The position numbers were made by a program, and so were the translations under genes. From assembly GCA_028868695.1 (NCBI GenBank), contig JAGWTZ010000012.1, positions 1,046-65,045 on the forward strand: DNA of 64,000 nucleotides. The letters are read 5' to 3'. Positions 5,124 through 34,110 of the stretch are shown one piece after another; the first letter of the stretch is position 1; every line of letters starts with the position of its first letter. The notes below the pieces were generated by a model that worked only from the letters and a program-made list of their open reading frames with translations, did not search any database and had not been told where the DNA came from. The stretch comes from Alphaproteobacteria bacterium (GTDB lineage: Bacteria > Pseudomonadota > Alphaproteobacteria > Rhizobiales > Aestuariivirgaceae).

Positions 5124-6026
5124 TCACGCCTTGGGTGCCTTTACATATTTCCGCCAGTTGTGCTCTTCCCTAAAGCCGAGCACTTCGCGGATCTTGCGGT
5201 TGCTCAGCGGCGCTTCATCACCCACAAGCTTGCGGCGGTGTGGCGAATTGGGCGCATGCTTGTTGAGGAAAGCTTCAGTGGGCTCGTAAGCGGTGATGGT
5301 GTCATTCACGGCGTTGAAAACCTGATAGCCTAGGCCATCCTTGCCGAGGCACAGATGCACGATCTGGCCAAGATCACGCGCGTCGATGTAGCTCCAGGCG
5401 TTGCGCTTGCGAGCCAGCGGGTTGGCCATGAAGCCGGGGAAACGGTCATACTCATGTGGCTCAATGACGTTGCCAATGCGCAAGGCATAGATATCGGCGT
5501 TGAAGCGGCTGGCAAATGCGCGGGCGGTTTTCTCGTTCACCACCTTGGAGAGGCCGTAGCTGTCCATCGGGTCCACGTCATAGTCTTCCTCCAGCGGAAA
5601 ATGCTGGTAGTCCTTGTCGCCCTCCGCAAAGCAAACGCCATAGGTTGTTTCGCTTGAGGCGATCACCACCTTGCGCACGCCCAATTTCATGGCGGCTTCA
5701 ATGACGTTGTATGTGCTTGTCACATTGGCGGCGAAAGTCTTGTTGTCGGGCTCCAGCAAAACGCGGGGGATGGCGGCAAAATGGACAACTGCGTCCGGCG
5801 GACCGGCGGCGCGGCCCTTCTCGAAATCATTAAAGTCAAAATGCTGGGAAAGGGCATTGAAGGTCTGGCCGCTGTCGGTGAGATCAGCGGTGAGATTTTT
5901 AACACCCGGATGCTGCAAGGGTTTCAGGTCCACATTGAGAATGTCATAGCCCTTGCCCAGAAGCCAAGGAATGACGTGGCGGCCCGCCTTGCCAGAACCA
6001 CCTGTAAACACAATGCGTTTGCTCAT
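5124..6026 (-). CDS. NAD-dependent epimerase/dehydratase (extended SDR)
   Basis: TGGSGKAG, HFAAIP and YGLSK motifs. Confidence 0.9.
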   Translation of the reverse strand: MSKRIVFTGGSGKAGRHVIPWLLGKGYDILNVDLKPLQHPGVKNLTADLTDSGQTFNALSQHFDFNDFEKGRAAGPPDAVVHFAAIPRVLLEPDNKTFAANVTSTYNVIEAAMKLGVRKVVIASSETTYGVCFAEGDKDYQHFPLEEDYDVDPMDSYGLSKVVNEKTARAFASRFNADIYALRIGNVIEPHEYDRFPGFMANPLARKRNAWSYIDARDLGQIVHLCLGKDGLGYQVFNAVNDTITAYEPTEAFLNKHAPNSPHRRKLVGDEAPLSNRKIREVLGFREEHNWRKYVKAPKA

Positions 6027-27239: not shown

Positions 27240-27965
27240 TCAGGCCATGTATTGGCCGCCATTGGCCGAGAGGGTGGAGCCGGTGATGAAGCCGGCATCA
27301 TCGGCGGCGAGGAAGGCCACGCAACGCGCAATCTCTTCGGGCTCGCCCACGCGGCCCACCGGGATCAGCGGCAGAATGCGCTCATTCATCACCTTCTCGG
27401 GCACGGCCTTGACCATGTCGGTGCCGATATAGCCGGGGCAGATGGCATTGACGGTGATGCCCTTGGCGGCACCCTCCTGGGCCAGCGACTTGACGAAGCC
27501 GATCTCGCCGGCCTTGGCGGCGGCGTAGTTCGCCTGGCCCATCTGGCCCTTCTGGCCATTGATCGAGGAGATGCAGATGATGCGGCCGAAGCCGCGGTCA
27601 CGCATGCCGCCCCAGACCGGGCTGGTCATGTTGAACAGCGAATTGAGGTTGGTGTTCAGGACTTCCTGCCATTGCTGCAGCGTCATCTTGTGGAACATGG
27701 CATCGCGGGTGATGCCAGCATTGTTGACGAGGATGTCCACGGCGCCAAGCTCGGCCTCGATGGCCTTCAGCGTGGCGGCGCAGGTTTCAGCGCTGGTGAC
27801 ATCGCATTTGTAGACGTTGATGCCCGTCTCGGCCTTGAAGGCGGCGGCCGCGGCATCATTGCCCGCATAGATGGCGGCCACCTTGCAGCCCTGGGCTTTC
27901 AGCGCCTTGGAAATGGCGGCGCCAATTCCTCTTGATCCTCCGGTGACAACGGCTACGCGGCTCAT
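27240..27965 (-). CDS. phaB: Acetoacetyl-CoA reductase (PHB synthesis)
   Basis: TGGSRGIG, NNAGITRD and NGQKGQMGQANYAAAK motifs. Confidence 0.96.
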   Translation of the reverse strand: MSRVAVVTGGSRGIGAAISKALKAQGCKVAAIYAGNDAAAAAFKAETGINVYKCDVTSAETCAATLKAIEAELGAVDILVNNAGITRDAMFHKMTLQQWQEVLNTNLNSLFNMTSPVWGGMRDRGFGRIICISSINGQKGQMGQANYAAAKAGEIGFVKSLAQEGAAKGITVNAICPGYIGTDMVKAVPEKVMNERILPLIPVGRVGEPEEIARCVAFLAADDAGFITGSTLSANGGQYMA

Positions 27966-28134
27966 GGTGGTCCTCCTCTTTTTTGGTGATCATGCCGCAG
28001 GGATGGGACGGCGGCAACTGGATTGATGCGGAGGGGAATGGCGCAGCTTCAGCTTCGGAGGTTCTATGCCGTTCTGCGCCGTCCGGCCCCGCCATCTTTT
28101 ACCGTCATTCCACCAAAGCACCGCACCCACAGAC

Positions 28135-28259
28135 CGTCATTCCGGCCGCGATTGCAAGGCAATCGTGGCGAAGTCTGCGAGCCGGAATCCCGCTTGGGCT
28201 GGGTGCGGAAGGTGCAGAGCCTGCGGCCTAGCTGGGCCCCTGCCTTCGCAGGGGTGACG
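28135..28259. repeat. Paired CGTC-tagged REP-like palindromes
   Basis: CGTCATTCCGGC...GCCGGAATCC (28135-28190) and an inverted CGTCACCCCTGCGAAGGCAGGGG ending at 28259. Confidence 0.8.
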
Positions 28260-28336
28260 GAGGTGGGTGAGTTGGATTTGGTCATGGTTGTTCCCTTGGT
28301 TGCCCCGTGGCGTGCGGGGCAGAGGAAAGAAGGGAG

Positions 28337-28700
28337 ACGCGTGGGATAATCCGACGCGGGTGCCACTGTGTTTTAAGTGGCCAGAAGTGCGTTGGGTTGC
28401 CCCACGCGCCGGCAGGAATTGAGCATCAGGTGAACTGTCAGTCCGCCCCTATGGGTCTGGGGTGGTGAAGCCCATTCTGGGCTTTGCCACCCGAGGTGAT
28501 CCATCTCACTTCCTACTCGGAGGAAGCCTGATGGGAGACACCAGAGGCCTTGCCATAGCAGCCCGGGTCTTAGTGCCCGAGGAAGTTCAACCTGGCTCCC
28601 GGTGGAGTTGGGATACGTTATCCCTTCCAGCAGGCCTGCCGCCCCCTTGCATCCGGGTTCACCGTCATGAACCGGACCCCAGTGCAAGGGAGCGGAAGGC
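28337..28700 (+). ncRNA. Candidate large structured ncRNA of unknown family
   Basis: At least 10 helices, long-range pairings 28410-16/28635-41 and 28424-30/28527-33, crossing pairing 28431-36/28584-89; most G-U wobbles favour the + strand. Confidence 0.55.
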
Positions 28701-28755
28701 AGCTAGCACATCCTAGGAATAAAAGCAAGTTAATTCTCTGCCCCCGCCCTAGTTC

Positions 28756-28800
28756 CGTCACCCCTACGAAAGCAGGGGCCCCGCTTGGGCAAGGTGCGGA
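28756..28800 (+). repeat. CGTC-tagged REP-like palindrome
   Basis: CGTCACCCCTACGAAAGCAGGGG plus a CCCGCTTGGGC..GTGCGGA tail shared with the 28135 unit. Confidence 0.75.
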
Positions 28801-28890
28801 ACTTGCTCGCGATGTTTCTTGCGCTTGTGGCGCGCCAAGGTTTAGGCACAATCATCCGCAGCTTTCACTGGATTTTGGCAGCGACATATT

Positions 28891-28926
28891 AAAAACCAAA
28901 ATGGTGGCTGGCGTTTCCAGCCACCA
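28891..28926 (-). terminator. Rho-independent terminator after the small HTH gene
   Basis: 10-bp stem TGGTGGCTGG/CCAGCCACCA, T-rich tail on minus strand, 10 nt past the stop. Confidence 0.65.
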
Positions 28927-28935
28927 CCATCTTGC

Positions 28936-29127
28936 TTAGAGCATCGGAGGATATGCGTCTTTGCTTCCTACGTGCCTCCTACCTTTGATGATTTCGCTAA
29001 TCCGGCCTGGATTAACATCAAAGAATGCAGCAATGCGGTGCTGAAATTCTCCAGCACGAAACATCGCCCAAACCTTTATTGCATCGTCAAAAGTGAGCCT
29101 GCGGCTCGGTCGTTTATCCGCAATCAT
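28936..29127 (-). CDS. Small (63 aa) helix-turn-helix-like protein; alternative start 29205
   Basis: LTFDDAIKVWAMFRAGEFQHRIAAFFDVNPGRISEIIKG has an HTH pattern; own terminator; lower GC than neighbours. Confidence 0.6.
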   Translation of the reverse strand: MIADKRPSRRLTFDDAIKVWAMFRAGEFQHRIAAFFDVNPGRISEIIKGRRHVGSKDAYPPML

Positions 29128-29489
29128 GGCGGCATTTCCTTTTGAAATGCCGTTAAGTGGCTTGACATCGTGACCGAACGGACGCAAGAAAAGCGCCGTG
29201 ATCACAAATGGCCGCCCCTTAACGGCGGTTGCTTTCCAAAGCCGATCCGCGTTAGCGCGTGGATCGGCTTATCTTTTGGCGTAATGCCAAACGACCCATC
29301 GGATTTCATTGAGTCTTAACTTCTTGTCAACCCCCATAAGCCGTTGAAATCGAGTCTTTTTAGGAGTGCCGCATAAGTATTTCCTTATGTGGCGGGCCAA
29401 ACATCTCTTCCCGTGACTCTCATCAAACTGCGCACTGTCTGCTTAGCTTTGCAATCCACCCGCCCGCCGAGAGGAATAGACCGAGCCTG

Positions 29490-29561
29490 TCGCCAAGCGG
29501 GATTCCGTGTCGCGCGCAGACCCATCATGACCTTGCCATGACGTACTTGCACGGAATGACG
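29490..29561 (-). repeat. CGTC-tagged REP-like branched palindrome
   Basis: Minus strand CGTCATTCCGTG...CACGGAATCCCGCTTGGC; same tail as the 28135 and 28756 units. Confidence 0.75.
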
Positions 29562-29648
29562 GGAGTGGGGAGTGGCTCCCCCTCCGGGGAGCAGGCAAGA
29601 TGAGCGAATCCTGTTTCTCCGGGGAGCAGAAGGAATGCGCCTTGCCAC

Positions 29649-29682
29649 AAAAAAAAGCCCGCGCCTTGCGGCGCGGGGGCTT
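29649..29682 (-). terminator. Rho-independent terminator of phaA
   Basis: CCCGCGCC-GCAA-GGCGCGGG stem-loop followed by T8 on minus strand. Confidence 0.8.
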
Positions 29683-29707
29683 GGTCTTCAACGGTTCAGC
29701 TTTGTGA

Positions 29708-30889
29708 TCAGCGTTCCAGGCACATGGCAACGCCCATGCCGCCGCCGATGCAAAGGGTGGCGAGGCCCTTCTTGGCGTTCGACCGCTTCATCTCAAACAG
29801 CAGCGTGTTGAGGATGCGCGCACCCGAGGCACCGATGGGATGGCCGATGGCGATGGCGCCGCCATTGACGTTCACCTTGGCGAGATCCCAGCCCATGTCC
29901 TTGTTCACGGCGCAGGCCTGGGCGGCGAAGGCTTCATTGGCCTCGACGAGATCAAGATCGACGGCATTCCAGCCCGCCTTCTTCAGCGCGGCGCGCGACG
30001 CGGGGATGGGGCCTGTGCCCATGACGGCGGGATCAACACCGGCCGTTGCGAAAGAGGCGATGCGGGCCAAAGGTGTGAGGCCGCGCTTTGCGGCCTCGGC
30101 AGCGCTCATCAGCAACACGACGGCGGCACCATCATTGATGCCGGAGGCGTTGGCGGCCGTCACCGTGCCTTCCTTGGAGAAGGCGGGGCGCAGCTTGGCC
30201 ACGCTGTCCATGGTCACACCCTTCTTGATGTATTCATCAGCATCCACCACCACATCGCCCTTGCGGCCCGAAATGGTGACGGCGGCAATCTCATCCTTGA
30301 ACTTGCCGGCAGCCTGCGCGGCCTCGGCCTTGTTCTGGGATTTGACGGCGAATTCATCCTGCTGTTCGCGGGTGATCTGCCATTGCTTGGCGACATTCTC
30401 GGCGGTGGTGCCCATGTGATAGCCGTTGAAGGCATCCCACAACCCGTCCTTGATCATGGTGTCGATCAGGTTCCAGTCACCCATCTTCACGCCATCGCGC
30501 AGATGCGCGGCGTGGGCGGATTTCGACATGCTCTCCTGGCCGCCGGCAATGGCAATCGCCGCATCACCCAGCGCGATCTGCTGGGCGGCGAGGGCCACGG
30601 CGCGAAGCCCCGAGCCGCAGACCTGGTTTATGCCCCAGGCCGAGGCTTCCTTGGACAGGCCGGCATTGATGGCGGCCTGGCGGGCCGGGTTCTGGCCTTG
30701 CGCGGCGGTCAAGACCTGGCCGAGGATCACTTCATCCACTTCAGCGGCCTCGACCTTCGCGCGCTCCAGCGCCGCCTTGATGGCGATAGTGCCGAGCTGG
30801 GCGCCCGTGAGGCTGGAAAGCGCGCCATTGAACGAACCCACTGGCGTTCTGGCGGCGGAAACGATGACGATGTCCTTGAGGCTGCTCAT
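29708..30889 (-). CDS. phaA: Acetyl-CoA acetyltransferase (beta-ketothiolase)
   Basis: [28 protein letters not shown] and LCIGGGMG motifs. Confidence 0.97.
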
Positions 30890-31017: not shown

Positions 31018-31650
31018 GTGAGTGACGAGCAAGCCCCAAACCCGGCCGGCAAAGCCCAGGCCACGGTGATCAAGAAATATGCCAACCGCCGCCTCTACAA
31101 CACCGCCACCTCGACCTATGTGACGCTGGATGACCTGGCGCTGATGGTGAAGAACGGGCAGGACTTCCTGGTTTATGACGCAAAGAGCGGCGAAGACATC
31201 ACACGCTCGGTTCTCACCCAGATCATTTTCGAAGAGGAAAACAAGGGCGGGGCGCAGAACCTGCTGCCTGTCAATTTCCTGCGCAACCTGATCCGCTTTT
31301 ATGGCGACCAGATGCAGGGCCTGGTGCCCGGCTATCTCGACTTCTCGCTCGACAACCTGATGAAGGAGCAGGAGAAGATCCGCAAGCAGATGATGGACGC
31401 GATCGGGGTTGGCGACCAGTTCAAGGGCATGGAAGACCAGGCCAAGCGCAACATGGCGATGTTCAATGACGCCATGAAGATGTTCAACCCCTTTGCCACG
31501 ATGATGGGCGGCGGGATGCCGGGGGCTGGGCCTAAGCCGGGTGCTTCGGGCGCTGCTTCACCTTCACCTGCCGCTGCCAAGGACGACTTGCAGGCGCTGA
31601 AAGACCAATTGGCGGCGATGCAGCAGAAGCTGGACAATATCTCGCGCTAG
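31018..31650 (+). CDS. phaR: Polyhydroxyalkanoate synthesis repressor PhaR
   Basis: [23 protein letters not shown] and [15 protein letters not shown] motifs; GTG start. Confidence 0.96.
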
Positions 31651-31779: not shown

Positions 31780-31819
31780 CGGCACCGGGGCTGAGGCAGC
31801 ACCGGTGCCGTTTGATTTT
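31780..31819 (+). terminator. Terminator between convergent phaR and the EAL gene
   Basis: CGGCACCGG/CCGGTGCCG stem followed by TTTGATTTT. Confidence 0.6.
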
Positions 31820-34110
31820 CAGGCGGCGTCGCGGTCTGGCGTTGCTGCCTGGGCGGCGCTGAGGTCTGCCAGGGCGGCGCGCAGCCTTGCGATGCTTTCA
31901 TCAATATCGGCAAAGACCAGCTCAGGTTCGGCGGGCGCGGCTTCTTCCACGGCGGGCGGCAGCGGCTCTTCCATGGCGATCACCGGCTCATCTTCCGCGA
32001 AAACGGGGGCGGGGGTTTCAACTTCGGGCGGGGCCTCAAGGGCCTCGGTGAACATCAGCGGCTCCGGCTCAAAATCCTTGCCTTCGGTGTGGGGCGTGAT
32101 GTCCATGTTCATTTCGACATAGGCCGTGCCGGGCGCGATCGGCTCATCGGACTGGCCTTCGCCAGCGCCGCTGGCGGTGTGGTGGTGCATGGCGATTTCA
32201 TGCTCGGGATCGCGCTCCGCAGCTTCGGCGAGGCTGGCGGCGAGCGGATCAGGCTGCTCATCGCCGCCAATGTCAAAGCGGTTGGCGCGGGCGATGGTCC
32301 AGGGCGGCAGCACCGAGGCTTCGCCGAACAGGTTGCCTTGCAGGTAGTCGATGCCCCAGGCTTTCAGGGCGGCGGCGTCTTCTTCCGTCTCCACCCATTC
32401 GGCCACGGTTTTCAGGTTGAACTTGCCGGAGAGGTCAATGAGGCTGCGCACCATGTATTCGTTGTCCTTGTCGGTGCCGAGGTTGCGGCAGAAGCTGCCG
32501 TCGAATTTCAGGATGTTCACCGGAAGCTCGCGCAGGTGCTTGAAGGAGGTGAAGCCGGCGCCGAAATCATCAATGGCCACGCTGCAGCCCGCCTCGCGCA
32601 GCTTTTCGACAAACCTGCGGGTGGATTGCATGTCATTGAGCGCCACGGTTTCGGTGATCTCCAGCGTGAGGCGGCTGGCGGCCTGCTGGTTGGCGAAGAT
32701 CACATCGAGCAGCTGGTCATACCAATAAGGGTCGGTGGCGGTGGTGCCGGAGAGGTTCATCGACAGCTGCGCCTCGGGATAGACGTGCAGCGTCTGGATG
32801 ATCATCTGCATCACGGCGCGGTCCACCAGCCGCACCAGGCCCAGGTGTTCGGCGATGGGCACGAGATGCGAGGCGGCGATGAGCTCGCCCGTAGCCTCAT
32901 CCTGCATGCGCAGCAGGGCCTCATGGAACACGGCCTCGCCAGTGCGGGCATGCAGCACCGGCTGGTAGGCGAGCTTGAAGCGGTCTTCCTTCAGGCATTT
33001 GACGATTTCAGTGGCGCAGCGGGCGTTGAGGGCGCGCTCGGCGGTGCGGCGCTCGGAAGGCTTGTAGATCACCTGGCCATCGGAGGGCAGCTTGCGCGCC
33101 TCGTTCAATGCCTCTTCGGCGCGCGACAAGGCGGTGGCGGCGTCATCGGCATCGGCGGGCAGGTTGATGGCGCCGATCGACAGCGTGGCCCAGACGGGGC
33201 CGCGGCCGGTTTCGATGACGTTGTCGCGGATCACCGACAGGTAGCGGCGCAGGGCCATTTCCAGATCGGTCTCGTTGCAGTCATTGAGGATGATGCCGAA
33301 CTTGCCGCCGCCCAAGCGGGCGATGCCGTCACCCACCCGCATCACCTGGCGCAGGCGGCGGGCAGCGGCGACGATCACCTCATCGGCCACGTCAAAACCG
33401 TAAGCCTCATTGACGAGCGGCAGGTTGTTGATGGCGGCGATGACAAAGGCGCAAGCGCCGGCAGCTTTCTTGGCGACGCTGACGGCCTGGTCCAACGCTT
33501 CCATCATGCGGCCCTGGTTCATCATGCCGGTGAGCGGGTCGCAGGAAGAAAGGAAATTGAGGTGCTGGTCGCGGCGGTGGCGCTCATCAACCTGGCGCAG
33601 CGTGCCGAAAACCGTCTTGGGCAGGCCATCGGGGCCTGCCTGCCAGCGGCCAATGTCTTCCAGCCAGATGGCCTTGGCGTTCTGGCGGCCCTCGGGGCGG
33701 AACAGGTATTCAATCTGGAAGGCCACGCCGCGGCCGCTGTCACGCAGCCTGGAATTCATCACGGTTTCATAGCGGGTGGTGACATTTTCAATGTCGAGCA
33801 GGCTGGCGAACTGCTTGCCGGCGCTGATGGCGGCCAAGGGGCAGCCCAAAACCTCGGGCGCATTGGGGCTCCAGATGATTTCGTCGGTCTCGATGTTCCA
33901 GCGGTAGGCCGCCTCGCCGGCGGCGCGCAGGGCCTGGCGCAGGTCAGCCTCTGTGGCGGCCGGGGCCACCGAGGGCGTTTCAATGCCCTGCTGGGTGACG
34001 AGCTCGGCAAAAGCCTCGTTAAAGTCAAAAACCTGATTTGATGAAGATTCCAGCAAGGCCCGCCCTCGTATGAGGCCCGGTTTAGCGGGCAGGCGTAAAA
34101 AATCGGGCAA
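31819..34110 (-). CDS. PAS-GGDEF(degenerate)-EAL c-di-GMP phosphodiesterase; start uncertain
   Basis: DPLTGMMN and GGGKF (degenerate GGDEF); HEALLRM, IDDFGAGFTS and AEWVET EAL motifs; acidic C-terminal tail. Confidence 0.9.
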   Translation of the reverse strand: MPDFLRLPAKPGLIRGRALLESSSNQVFDFNEAFAELVTQQGIETPSVAPAATEADLRQALRAAGEAAYRWNIETDEIIWSPNAPEVLGCPLAAISAGKQFASLLDIENVTTRYETVMNSRLRDSGRGVAFQIEYLFRPEGRQNAKAIWLEDIGRWQAGPDGLPKTVFGTLRQVDERHRRDQHLNFLSSCDPLTGMMNQGRMMEALDQAVSVAKKAAGACAFVIAAINNLPLVNEAYGFDVADEVIVAAARRLRQVMRVGDGIARLGGGKFGIILNDCNETDLEMALRRYLSVIRDNVIETGRGPVWATLSIGAINLPADADDAATALSRAEEALNEARKLPSDGQVIYKPSERRTAERALNARCATEIVKCLKEDRFKLAYQPVLHARTGEAVFHEALLRMQDEATGELIAASHLVPIAEHLGLVRLVDRAVMQMIIQTLHVYPEAQLSMNLSGTTATDPYWYDQLLDVIFANQQAASRLTLEITETVALNDMQSTRRFVEKLREAGCSVAIDDFGAGFTSFKHLRELPVNILKFDGSFCRNLGTDKDNEYMVRSLIDLSGKFNLKTVAEWVETEEDAAALKAWGIDYLQGNLFGEASVLPPWTIARANRFDIGGDEQPDPLAASLAEAAERDPEHEIAMHHHTASGAGEGQSDEPIAPGTAYVEMNMDITPHTEGKDFEPEPLMFTEALEAPPEVETPAPVFAEDEPVIAMEEPLPPAVEEAAPAEPELVFADIDESIARLRAALADLSAAQAATPDRDAA

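Follow-up and report, generated by a model that had tools for sequence, protein, structure and literature searches.

We analyzed a 64,000-nt stretch of DNA (the window) from an Alphaproteobacteria bacterium of the family Aestuariivirgaceae (assembly GCA_028868695.1, contig JAGWTZ010000012.1, positions 1,046 to 65,045), in which phaA and phaB are set apart by a spacer of 1742 nt (27966 to 29707). The phaB gene (27240 to 27965, minus strand) encodes an acetoacetyl-CoA reductase with adh_short domains (TIGR01829, 1.4e-108), and phaA (29708 to 30889, minus strand) encodes an acetyl-CoA acetyltransferase with Thiolase_N and Thiolase_C domains. The regulator gene phaR (31018 to 31647, plus strand; TIGR01848) lies divergent from phaA, and ccmA and ccmB follow downstream of phaB. 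The phaR/phaA/phaB(/ccmA) order of the alphaproteobacterial phaAB operon is kept, and only the spacer is enlarged. Judging from sequence comparison, this spacer is probably a mosaic of separate insertions into an insertion-tolerant site rich in repetitive extragenic palindromic (REP) elements rather than one functional cassette. The pieces would be of three kinds: REPs of at least two types, a structured repeat that we call S, and a broken module of the kind carried by phages or insertion sequences (ISs), which contains a gene for a small helix-turn-helix (HTH) protein.

Read along the plus strand, the spacer starts with a phaB-proximal region, which is followed by the REPs R1 and R2, the S element, the REP R3, a transposase remnant, a two-way terminator, the HTH gene on the minus strand, the 5' region of that gene (to ~29395), the REP R4, two small palindromes, and the terminator of phaA. 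A preliminary description of this DNA had proposed much the same layout (a 1.7-kb gap with REPs, a structured stretch, a terminator, a small HTH gene, and another REP), and the layout is real, since each part could be located in the sequence. The terminator that it assigned to phaA is a minus-strand intrinsic terminator at 29649 to 29677, with an 8-bp all-GC stem (29677 to 29658) followed by T8. The lower GC content that it noted is also present, with values of 0.49 to 0.54 across 28700 to 29500 against 0.61 to 0.70 around; at such values, what had been called an AT-rich promoter region is just moderately AT-rich.

REP palindromes and the spacer in related genomes

R1 (28134 to 28215, plus strand) consists of a CCGTCATTCCGG...CCGGAATCCC palindrome (28134 to 28191) and a 27-nt tail common to R3 (28754 to 28806, plus strand; palindrome 28754 to 28788). 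R2 (CCGTCACCCCTGCGAAGGCAGGGGCCC; 28227 to 28261, minus strand) stands tail to tail with R1 and is the inverted partner of R3, so that R2 and R3 bracket S as 35-nt inverted repeats with 89% complementarity. R4 (~29493 to 29560, minus strand) is an R1-type palindrome in inverted orientation. These four copies, which belong to two REP types, all fall within 1.4 kb (28134 to 29560) and have no counterpart elsewhere in the 64-kb window, where the number of REP matches expected by chance is 0. They are short, extragenic, imperfect palindromes with inverted doublets, as is typical of REPs and of REP doublets forming hairpins (REPINs). The R2 unit reaches a metagenome depth of 1022 to 1179 in the home soil sample (X1) and 349 in a groundwater metagenome (X5), compared with ~8 for unique flanks. 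In a second soil copy and a mine-drainage copy, S is likewise followed by a REP, with a different 10-nt spacer in between. Two copies of another small palindrome type, CTCCGGGGAGCAG, were read directly from the sequence at 29582 to 29631.

The spacer shares several features with REP/REPIN arrays and with the bacterial interspersed mosaic elements (BIMEs) and the Rhizobium-specific intergenic mosaic elements (RIMEs), namely, intergenic palindromic units, inverted doublets (R1 and R2 tail to tail, and R2/R3), a very high copy number in metagenomes, and clustering after operon genes. It differs from them in that the REPs are confined to one site of the window and in the nature of S: no REPIN spacer or BIME comes near its size (~460 nt) or its complexity, with six hairpins unrelated to one another and an unpaired linker that is conserved.

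A look-up of the exact PhaB sequence of the window found no record. We searched GTDB species genomes with the PhaB protein and obtained 80 loci from related Hyphomicrobiales. The nearest belong to Hyphomicrobiales of the Aestuariivirga clade (PhaB identity of 81 to 91%), throughout which the order phaR-phaA-phaB-ccmA is conserved. In the 80 relatives the spacer is mostly 15 to 190 nt long, in agreement with the earlier statement that phaA and phaB are usually adjacent. The closest genome (L014, PhaB identity of 91%) has a 187-nt spacer with a REP-like hairpin only, and the short spacers of L020, L021, and L022 are filled by other REP palindromes, which are of the CTCCGGGGAGCAG kind. Long spacers are few and contain unrelated genes: a gene for a 358-aa multi-pass membrane protein in L016 (3026 to 4102) and L062 (4848 to 5927) and a 326-aa gene in L024 (4940 to 5920). 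No DNA similarity was found by blastn between the window spacer and the 80 phaB loci. Because relatives carry unrelated fillers at this position, the site appears to accrete insertions independently. The comparison thus supports the earlier idea of an insertion-prone, REP-rich spacer, which is short in relatives and variously filled where it is long; it speaks against the companion idea of a single inserted module, for which unrelated fillers in relatives, as in L016, L062, and L024, had been named as the refuting observation.

The S element

S (~28280 to 28744, ~460 nt, plus strand) is a dispersed, non-coding, multi-hairpin repeat and a candidate structured RNA. Its six hairpins lie at 28294 to 28335 (H1), 28338 to 28408 (H2), 28453 to 28495 (H3), 28501 to 28535 (H4), 28602 to 28632 (H5), and 28634 to 28703 (H6). 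A conserved linker extends over 28409 to 28458. When 28262 to 28740 was folded, the plus strand gave -225 kcal/mol (z = -5.3) and the minus strand gave -208 kcal/mol (z = -5.35). Over 28291 to 28745, the plus strand was more stable by 6.5 kcal/mol (-223.5 versus -217.0 kcal/mol), and the fold of S contains 17 G·U pairs on the plus strand and 9 on the minus strand.

Searches against described families gave no assignment. Rfam 15 yielded 0 matches for the whole window at the gathering threshold and only 14- to 20-bit noise for 27900 to 29800 at E values of ≤10, and ARAGORN found no tRNA or tmRNA; RNase P, 6S RNA, and tmRNA were dropped as candidates, as no model matched. The six frames of S have no Pfam match, and a search of their concatenated translation against the protein collection was also empty. 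Since, in addition, the X5 copy of S has indels of +6, +1, +4, and -1 inside both of the longer open reading frames (ORFs), S is not coding. The frameshifting indels and the lack of domain matches rule out the remnant of a protein gene. The body of a deleted IS1595 element was ruled out as well, since tblastn with two transposases finds just a 12-codon end, which lies outside S. No promoter or intrinsic terminator was found in the S stretch, and searches of the literature on IS1595 passenger genes and on large structured multicopy alphaproteobacterial RNAs gave no description of S.

The copy number of S was estimated from assembler k-mer depth in metagenomes, using contigs with at least 99% identity to the window. 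In X1, depth was 136 to 159 over the whole length of S and 7 to 15 for ccmA, phaB, phaA, phaR, and the HTH cassette; in X4, the corresponding values were 72 to 149 and mostly 4 to 8. S is therefore 10 to 20 times deeper than its flanks in the home soil metagenome, and orthologs in related strains cannot give such an excess at ≥99% identity. Read as copy number, these depths show S to be a dispersed repeat with many near-identical copies, which would have undergone recent amplification or homogenization. Assemblies behave in keeping with this: contigs of the home strain itself stop at 28171 and start again at 28713, and in one soil sample at least six different continuations follow position 28736, 28737, or 28744. 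Several of these continuations begin with a related C-rich tail, GCTCCCACCC.ACT.CCCACCT, and then diverge, some entering a REP and others not. The tail could be a rut-like site, a target, or part of a longer variant of S. Other diverging C-rich tails, seen at 28737 to 28753 of the window and at metagenome junctions, read TCTGCCCCCGCCC and TCCCACACAC, and in some of them, one being from X5, the sequence goes on with CTTCCATAATTATCCTTCATC.

Subfamilies of S can be distinguished. Variants with a different H6 arm occur in the home soil sample, X6 contains four variants of 28555 to 28640, and a variant found in metagenomes skips 28410 to 28554. Parts of S were also detected in groundwater, mine-drainage, and plastic-biofilm metagenomes, at lower depth than in soil, and the soil, groundwater, and mine-drainage copies are 93 to 97% identical. 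S is present in the groundwater metagenome X5, in which depth over the whole HTH cassette is zero. Outside these samples, S was rarely met. An exact 20-mer from its linker (28422 to 28441) had 0 matches in 185,579 GTDB species genomes, among which the one S-carrying genome described below ends before that position, and only two chance matches, inside a giant ORF, in JGI metagenomes. A 20-mer from 28550 to 28569 had no match in viral contigs, and blastn of S against plasmid and phage collections gave nothing. Short-read assemblies of metagenome-assembled genomes (MAGs) break at the repeat, which may account for the absence of S from genome collections, including that of its linker 20-mer from GTDB genomes. 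By its copy number and varied flanks, S is probably mobile.

We examined whether changes among the copies preserve the hairpins. For X5, X6, and X8, we reconstructed the homologs of S manually out of the difference tables of single-contig runs, which may have left small errors. In X5, the copy extends from 28330 to 28737 with 25 substitutions, of which 15 are in the tip of H3 and 7 are in H5; the 59-nt linker at 28400 to 28458 is unchanged, and 28487 to 28606 is essentially so. In the X6 copy, a U-A pair of H4 has become C-G (28514/28521). H5 occurs in three versions, all of which pair (GGGAUA/UAUCCC, GGUG/CACC, and GCGCUA/UGGCGC). Compensatory pairs were found altogether at 28514/28521, 28612/28622, 28613/28621, 28611/28623, and 28347/28399, in hairpins from H2 to H5, and RNAalifold with three sequences scored 7 of 129 pairs as compensatory.

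A covariance model of the S core (28332 to 28462) further identified a diverged copy, with 39 bits and an E value of 6e-5, in L015, a MAG of Aestuariivirga sp. GL92 whose PhaB is 88% identical; blastn had not detected it. This copy is ~75% identical to S, has the same orientation relative to phaB as in the window, and is located ~230 nt upstream of that gene; the contig stops within the copy. When it was included for H1 and H2, 5 of 33 pairs were compensatory. Two pairs of the H2 apical helix are changed on both sides in L015 (CG to GC and AU to GC), and three G·U pairs of the H2 lower helix are invariant in all four versions. As judged by these substitutions, which come from few and closely related sequences, the hairpins of S are maintained by selection in a strand-specific manner, on the plus strand. 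Selection for a plus-strand structure would fit an RNA and also hairpins of single-stranded DNA such as those on which Y1 transposases act.

Miniature inverted-repeat transposable elements (MITEs) and non-autonomous IS200/IS605 derivatives (palindrome-associated transposable elements, PATEs) resemble S in being short, non-coding, and dispersed, with near-identical copies that break short-read assemblies, hairpins near both ends (H1 and H6 lie ~10 to 40 nt from the ends of S), and strand-specific structure. In contrast to these elements, S lacks both terminal inverted repeats of its own and a target duplication, and it has neither a recognizable parent IS nor a partner transposase. Only the flanking R2 and R3 are inverted, direct repeats are found around neither S nor the R2-S-R3 unit, and some copies of S have no 3' REP. 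The available 5' and 3' flanks are few and variable, and no target tetranucleotide is definable from them. Unlike a passive MITE, S has an interior kept by compensatory change even in a relative with 75% identity.

The helix-turn-helix cassette

The stand-alone HTH gene (28936 to 29127, minus strand) is a real gene as the preliminary description held, but its product has 63 aa (29127 to 28936) and is not the 89-aa ORF. All 22 homologs are 61 to 83 aa long and begin with the Met equivalent to that of the window protein, with AAGGAA in front of it. The family comprises 649 clusters at 50% identity (E ≤ 0.001), nearly all of them stand-alone proteins of 60 to 110 aa. No Pfam family, including named HTH families such as XRE/HTH_3, CENP-B_N, and HTH_7, was matched at the gathering threshold (the best E values over 23 members were 0.0065 to 0.05), and no sequence relative has a structure in the PDB. 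An AlphaFold model of the protein is a three-helix HTH with a predicted local distance difference test score of 79.5, and its best structural matches, which are weak (E of ~1), are the CENP-B N-terminal, DeoR, paired, and resolvase DNA-binding domains. PHROGs gave weak matches to phage HTH proteins (PHROG 517, 59, and 6156). A profile of the family also matches five to eight tandem repeats in nuclease proteins of 380 to 680 aa with HNH_3/His-Me or GIY-YIG domains (P0054, P0155, and P0126), which connects the small protein with the modules by which homing endonucleases bind DNA. The tandem-array and PHROG matches and the three-helix fold recall the HTH modules of phage homing endonucleases, resolvases, and Mor proteins; the window protein differs from these in standing alone, with 63 aa, and in staying below all Pfam thresholds.

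The surroundings of the gene recur in other contexts. Window positions 28863 to 29296 have 85% DNA identity to L001 to L003 and 77% to L004 and L005, all of which are other contexts. In L001 and L003, the HTH gene converges on an IS1595-family transposase gene, and the last 12 codons of such a gene remain in the window at 28855 to 28890 (plus strand), where tblastn with the L001 transposase aligns residues 314 to 325 of 327 with 8 of 12 identical. This remnant lies inside the continuous 85%-identical alignment to L001, and its arrangement matches that of L001. Between remnant and HTH gene is a hairpin with T-runs on both sides (28900 to 28928), a two-way terminator that L001 shares and that L004 retains through compensatory changes. 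Since 8 of the final 12 residues of the L001 transposase can still be read from 28855 to 28890, the comparison shows the HTH cassette (28855 to ~29395) to be, by its sequence, a broken fragment of an IS1595- and phage-associated module. An intact IS1595 element, with its Zn ribbon and DDE transposase, was not found in the window, where just the 12-codon remnant is left; full transposase genes stand beside HTH homologs elsewhere.

In L006 to L009, L096, L097, and L099, the IS1595 transposase gene is just upstream of the HTH gene on the same strand, and a truncated one is present in L095. A DUF6471 gene lies divergent from the transposase gene in L001, L096, L097, and L099, which gives a DUF6471-transposase-HTH trio (L096, 3457 to 5192; L099, 3279 to 5031; L097, 459 to 2194; L001, 1509 to 3056); between L096 and L099 the block is 71 to 73% conserved. 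The orientation of the HTH gene relative to the 3' end of the transposase gene varies, being different in L001 from that in L096, L099, and L006. Genes for RecT, Sipho_Gp157, holin, amidase, and GcrA-like proteins occur near HTH homologs, and the surrounding DNA is sometimes phage-like.

Subgroups of IS1595 with passenger genes exist in the ISfinder literature. The cassette resembles such elements in that a transposase with Zn_ribbon_IS1595 and DDE_Tnp_IS1595 domains adjoins an HTH homolog in four independent element lineages and that the window keeps the 3' end of the transposase gene. It differs from them in that the transposase has been deleted in the window and the HTH orientation varies; the HTH gene adjoins the transposase gene and may be either a part of the IS or a neighbor of it.

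The 5' region of the HTH gene (29128 to 29395, minus strand; GC of ~0.50) contains hairpins at 29239 to 29270 and 29211 to 29226, the palindrome TGTGATCACA, and a TTGACA box. In L004, the hairpin corresponding to 29239 to 29270 has another sequence and the same shape, which suggests that the region may be a structured leader or an operator array. The two hairpins and the TGTGATCACA palindrome are kept in three contexts (window, 29205 to 29300, minus strand; L001, 1342 to 1440; L004, 249 to 330).

Origin and possible roles of the spacer components

In the mosaic that we favor, S would be a non-autonomous mobile element settling beside REP clusters. Its functional form would be the folded plus strand, most likely a transcript and possibly single-stranded DNA during mobilization. 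The HTH protein may regulate its own module, that is, the transposase and neighboring genes, by binding DNA, and a deletion, at the time the REP and S material came in or later, would have removed the transposase gene. Neither the REPs nor the IS/phage fragment is out of the ordinary, and S is unusually long, complex, and structurally conserved for a dispersed repeat. Several points weigh against this account. S folds equally well on both strands by z-score, and H6 folds better on the minus strand; no RNA-seq run was found to contain S; no terminal inverted repeats, target duplication, or partner transposase were found for S; and its homologs in X5, X6, and X8 are hand-rebuilt. Copy number comes from metagenome k-mer depth rather than from a closed genome, so that the extra copies could belong to other organisms or replicons of the sample, and the 64-kb window has a single copy. 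In a second species (L015), S likewise stands upstream of phaB and is oriented in the same way, which could point to a function tied to this locus instead of mobility. Lastly, the transposase remnant that ties the HTH cassette to IS1595 is only 12 codons long.

Alternatively, S could be a cluster of DNA palindromes, a large BIME- or RIME-like mosaic of REP-type units that has no role as RNA and whose hairpins are acted on as DNA. Its REP flanks, its dispersal, its subfamilies, and the z-scores of about -5.3 on both strands would agree with this, as would the lack of a promoter or terminator for S in our searches; the variant without 28410 to 28554 suggests modular build-up. However, it is the tips of the hairpins that vary and the 59-nt unpaired linker that is conserved, the three invariant G·U pairs of one helix would turn into A·C mismatches if the opposite strand were folded, and the hairpins of S are unlike each other and unlike the REPs. 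We therefore consider a pure DNA mosaic unlikely.

A resident gene for a non-coding RNA, divergent from phaB and tied to polyhydroxybutyrate metabolism, would explain the position and relative orientation of the L015 homolog, its covariation and conserved G·U pairs, and the conservation of the linkers in S; the high depth would then come from many related strains. Against it, S is absent from the closest genome (L014, with its 187-nt spacer) and from L016 to L024, and related-strain orthologs cannot account for a depth 10 to 20 times that of phaB and phaA at ≥99% identity. The six or more different 3' flanks in one sample also do not fit a resident gene, nor does the fact that copies from different habitats are 93 to 97% identical whereas the syntenic L015 copy is only ~75% identical. 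These observations make a locus-specific gene quite unlikely.

A more far-reaching idea is that S represents a new class of structured RNA borne by mobile elements, with a ~460-nt scaffold and a variable C-rich 3' tail, present in many copies beside REPs and acting in trans with an unlinked protein. Such an RNA might, for example, be guide- or bridge-like for a transposon nuclease or recombinase or be needed for its own mobilization. In outline, S is like the HEARO/IscB omega RNAs, the TnpB right-end RNAs (reRNAs), and the IS110 bridge RNAs: a large structured RNA-like scaffold in many copies with no adjacent ORF, made up of a conserved body and, after it, a variable tail. Unlike these, S matches neither the HEARO nor the IS605-orfB model of Rfam at E values of ≤10, no nuclease or recombinase gene is nearby, and its tails share a C-rich consensus rather than being arbitrary flanks, so that we treat the likeness as a resemblance only and give this idea a low chance of being correct.

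The preliminary description had offered, as one of two possibilities, a compact module, in which the HTH protein and the RNA of S act as a single functional unit that was inserted together, with the protein binding the RNA or its locus; the two are indeed neighbors that converge on one two-way terminator between REPs, but this very improbable reading is already largely refuted, since S was found in none of the HTH-homolog loci examined (by blastn in L001 to L011 and with the S-core covariance model in 14 loci, L001, L002, L004, L006, L008, L009, and L095 to L102), X5 has S without the HTH cassette, the two differ 10- to 20-fold in depth in the home sample, a REP and the transposase remnant separate them, the recurrent partner of the HTH gene elsewhere is an IS1595 transposase and not an RNA, and the HTH fold matches DNA-binding domains. 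The evidence does not bear out that module, which would have represented a new regulatory pairing. As a mosaic, the locus illustrates clearly how mobile debris of unrelated kinds (REPs, a dispersed repeat, and an IS/phage fragment) builds up in a conserved operon spacer. What merits further attention is S, which is long and non-coding, matches no described RNA family, and combines compensatory changes in its hairpins with many near-identical copies. Should S be transcribed and act together with a partner protein, it would be a new family among the few large multicopy bacterial RNAs; as nothing more than a DNA repeat, it would be unusually elaborate.

For phaB, a promoter of its own had been proposed as a consequence of the enlarged spacer. 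A promoter-like motif, TTGCCG-N17-CATGAT, lies upstream of phaB at 27989 to 28017 (minus strand). We compared the window with L014 and L015, and in all three TTGCC(G/T/C)-N17-CATGAT is found 20 to 50 nt 5' of phaB (L014, ~5935 to 5965; L015, ~305 to 340); it is missing from the more distant relatives compared. A promoter of its own for phaB is thus plausible, with the motif conserved in the two closest relatives. It would not be a consequence of the insertion, because the motif is present in L014, which lacks the insertion, and phaB keeps a promoter-like element older than the inserted material.

Beside phaR, a 763-aa ORF (31819 to 34110, minus strand) has GGDEF-EAL-like features, as judged by eye from its translation.

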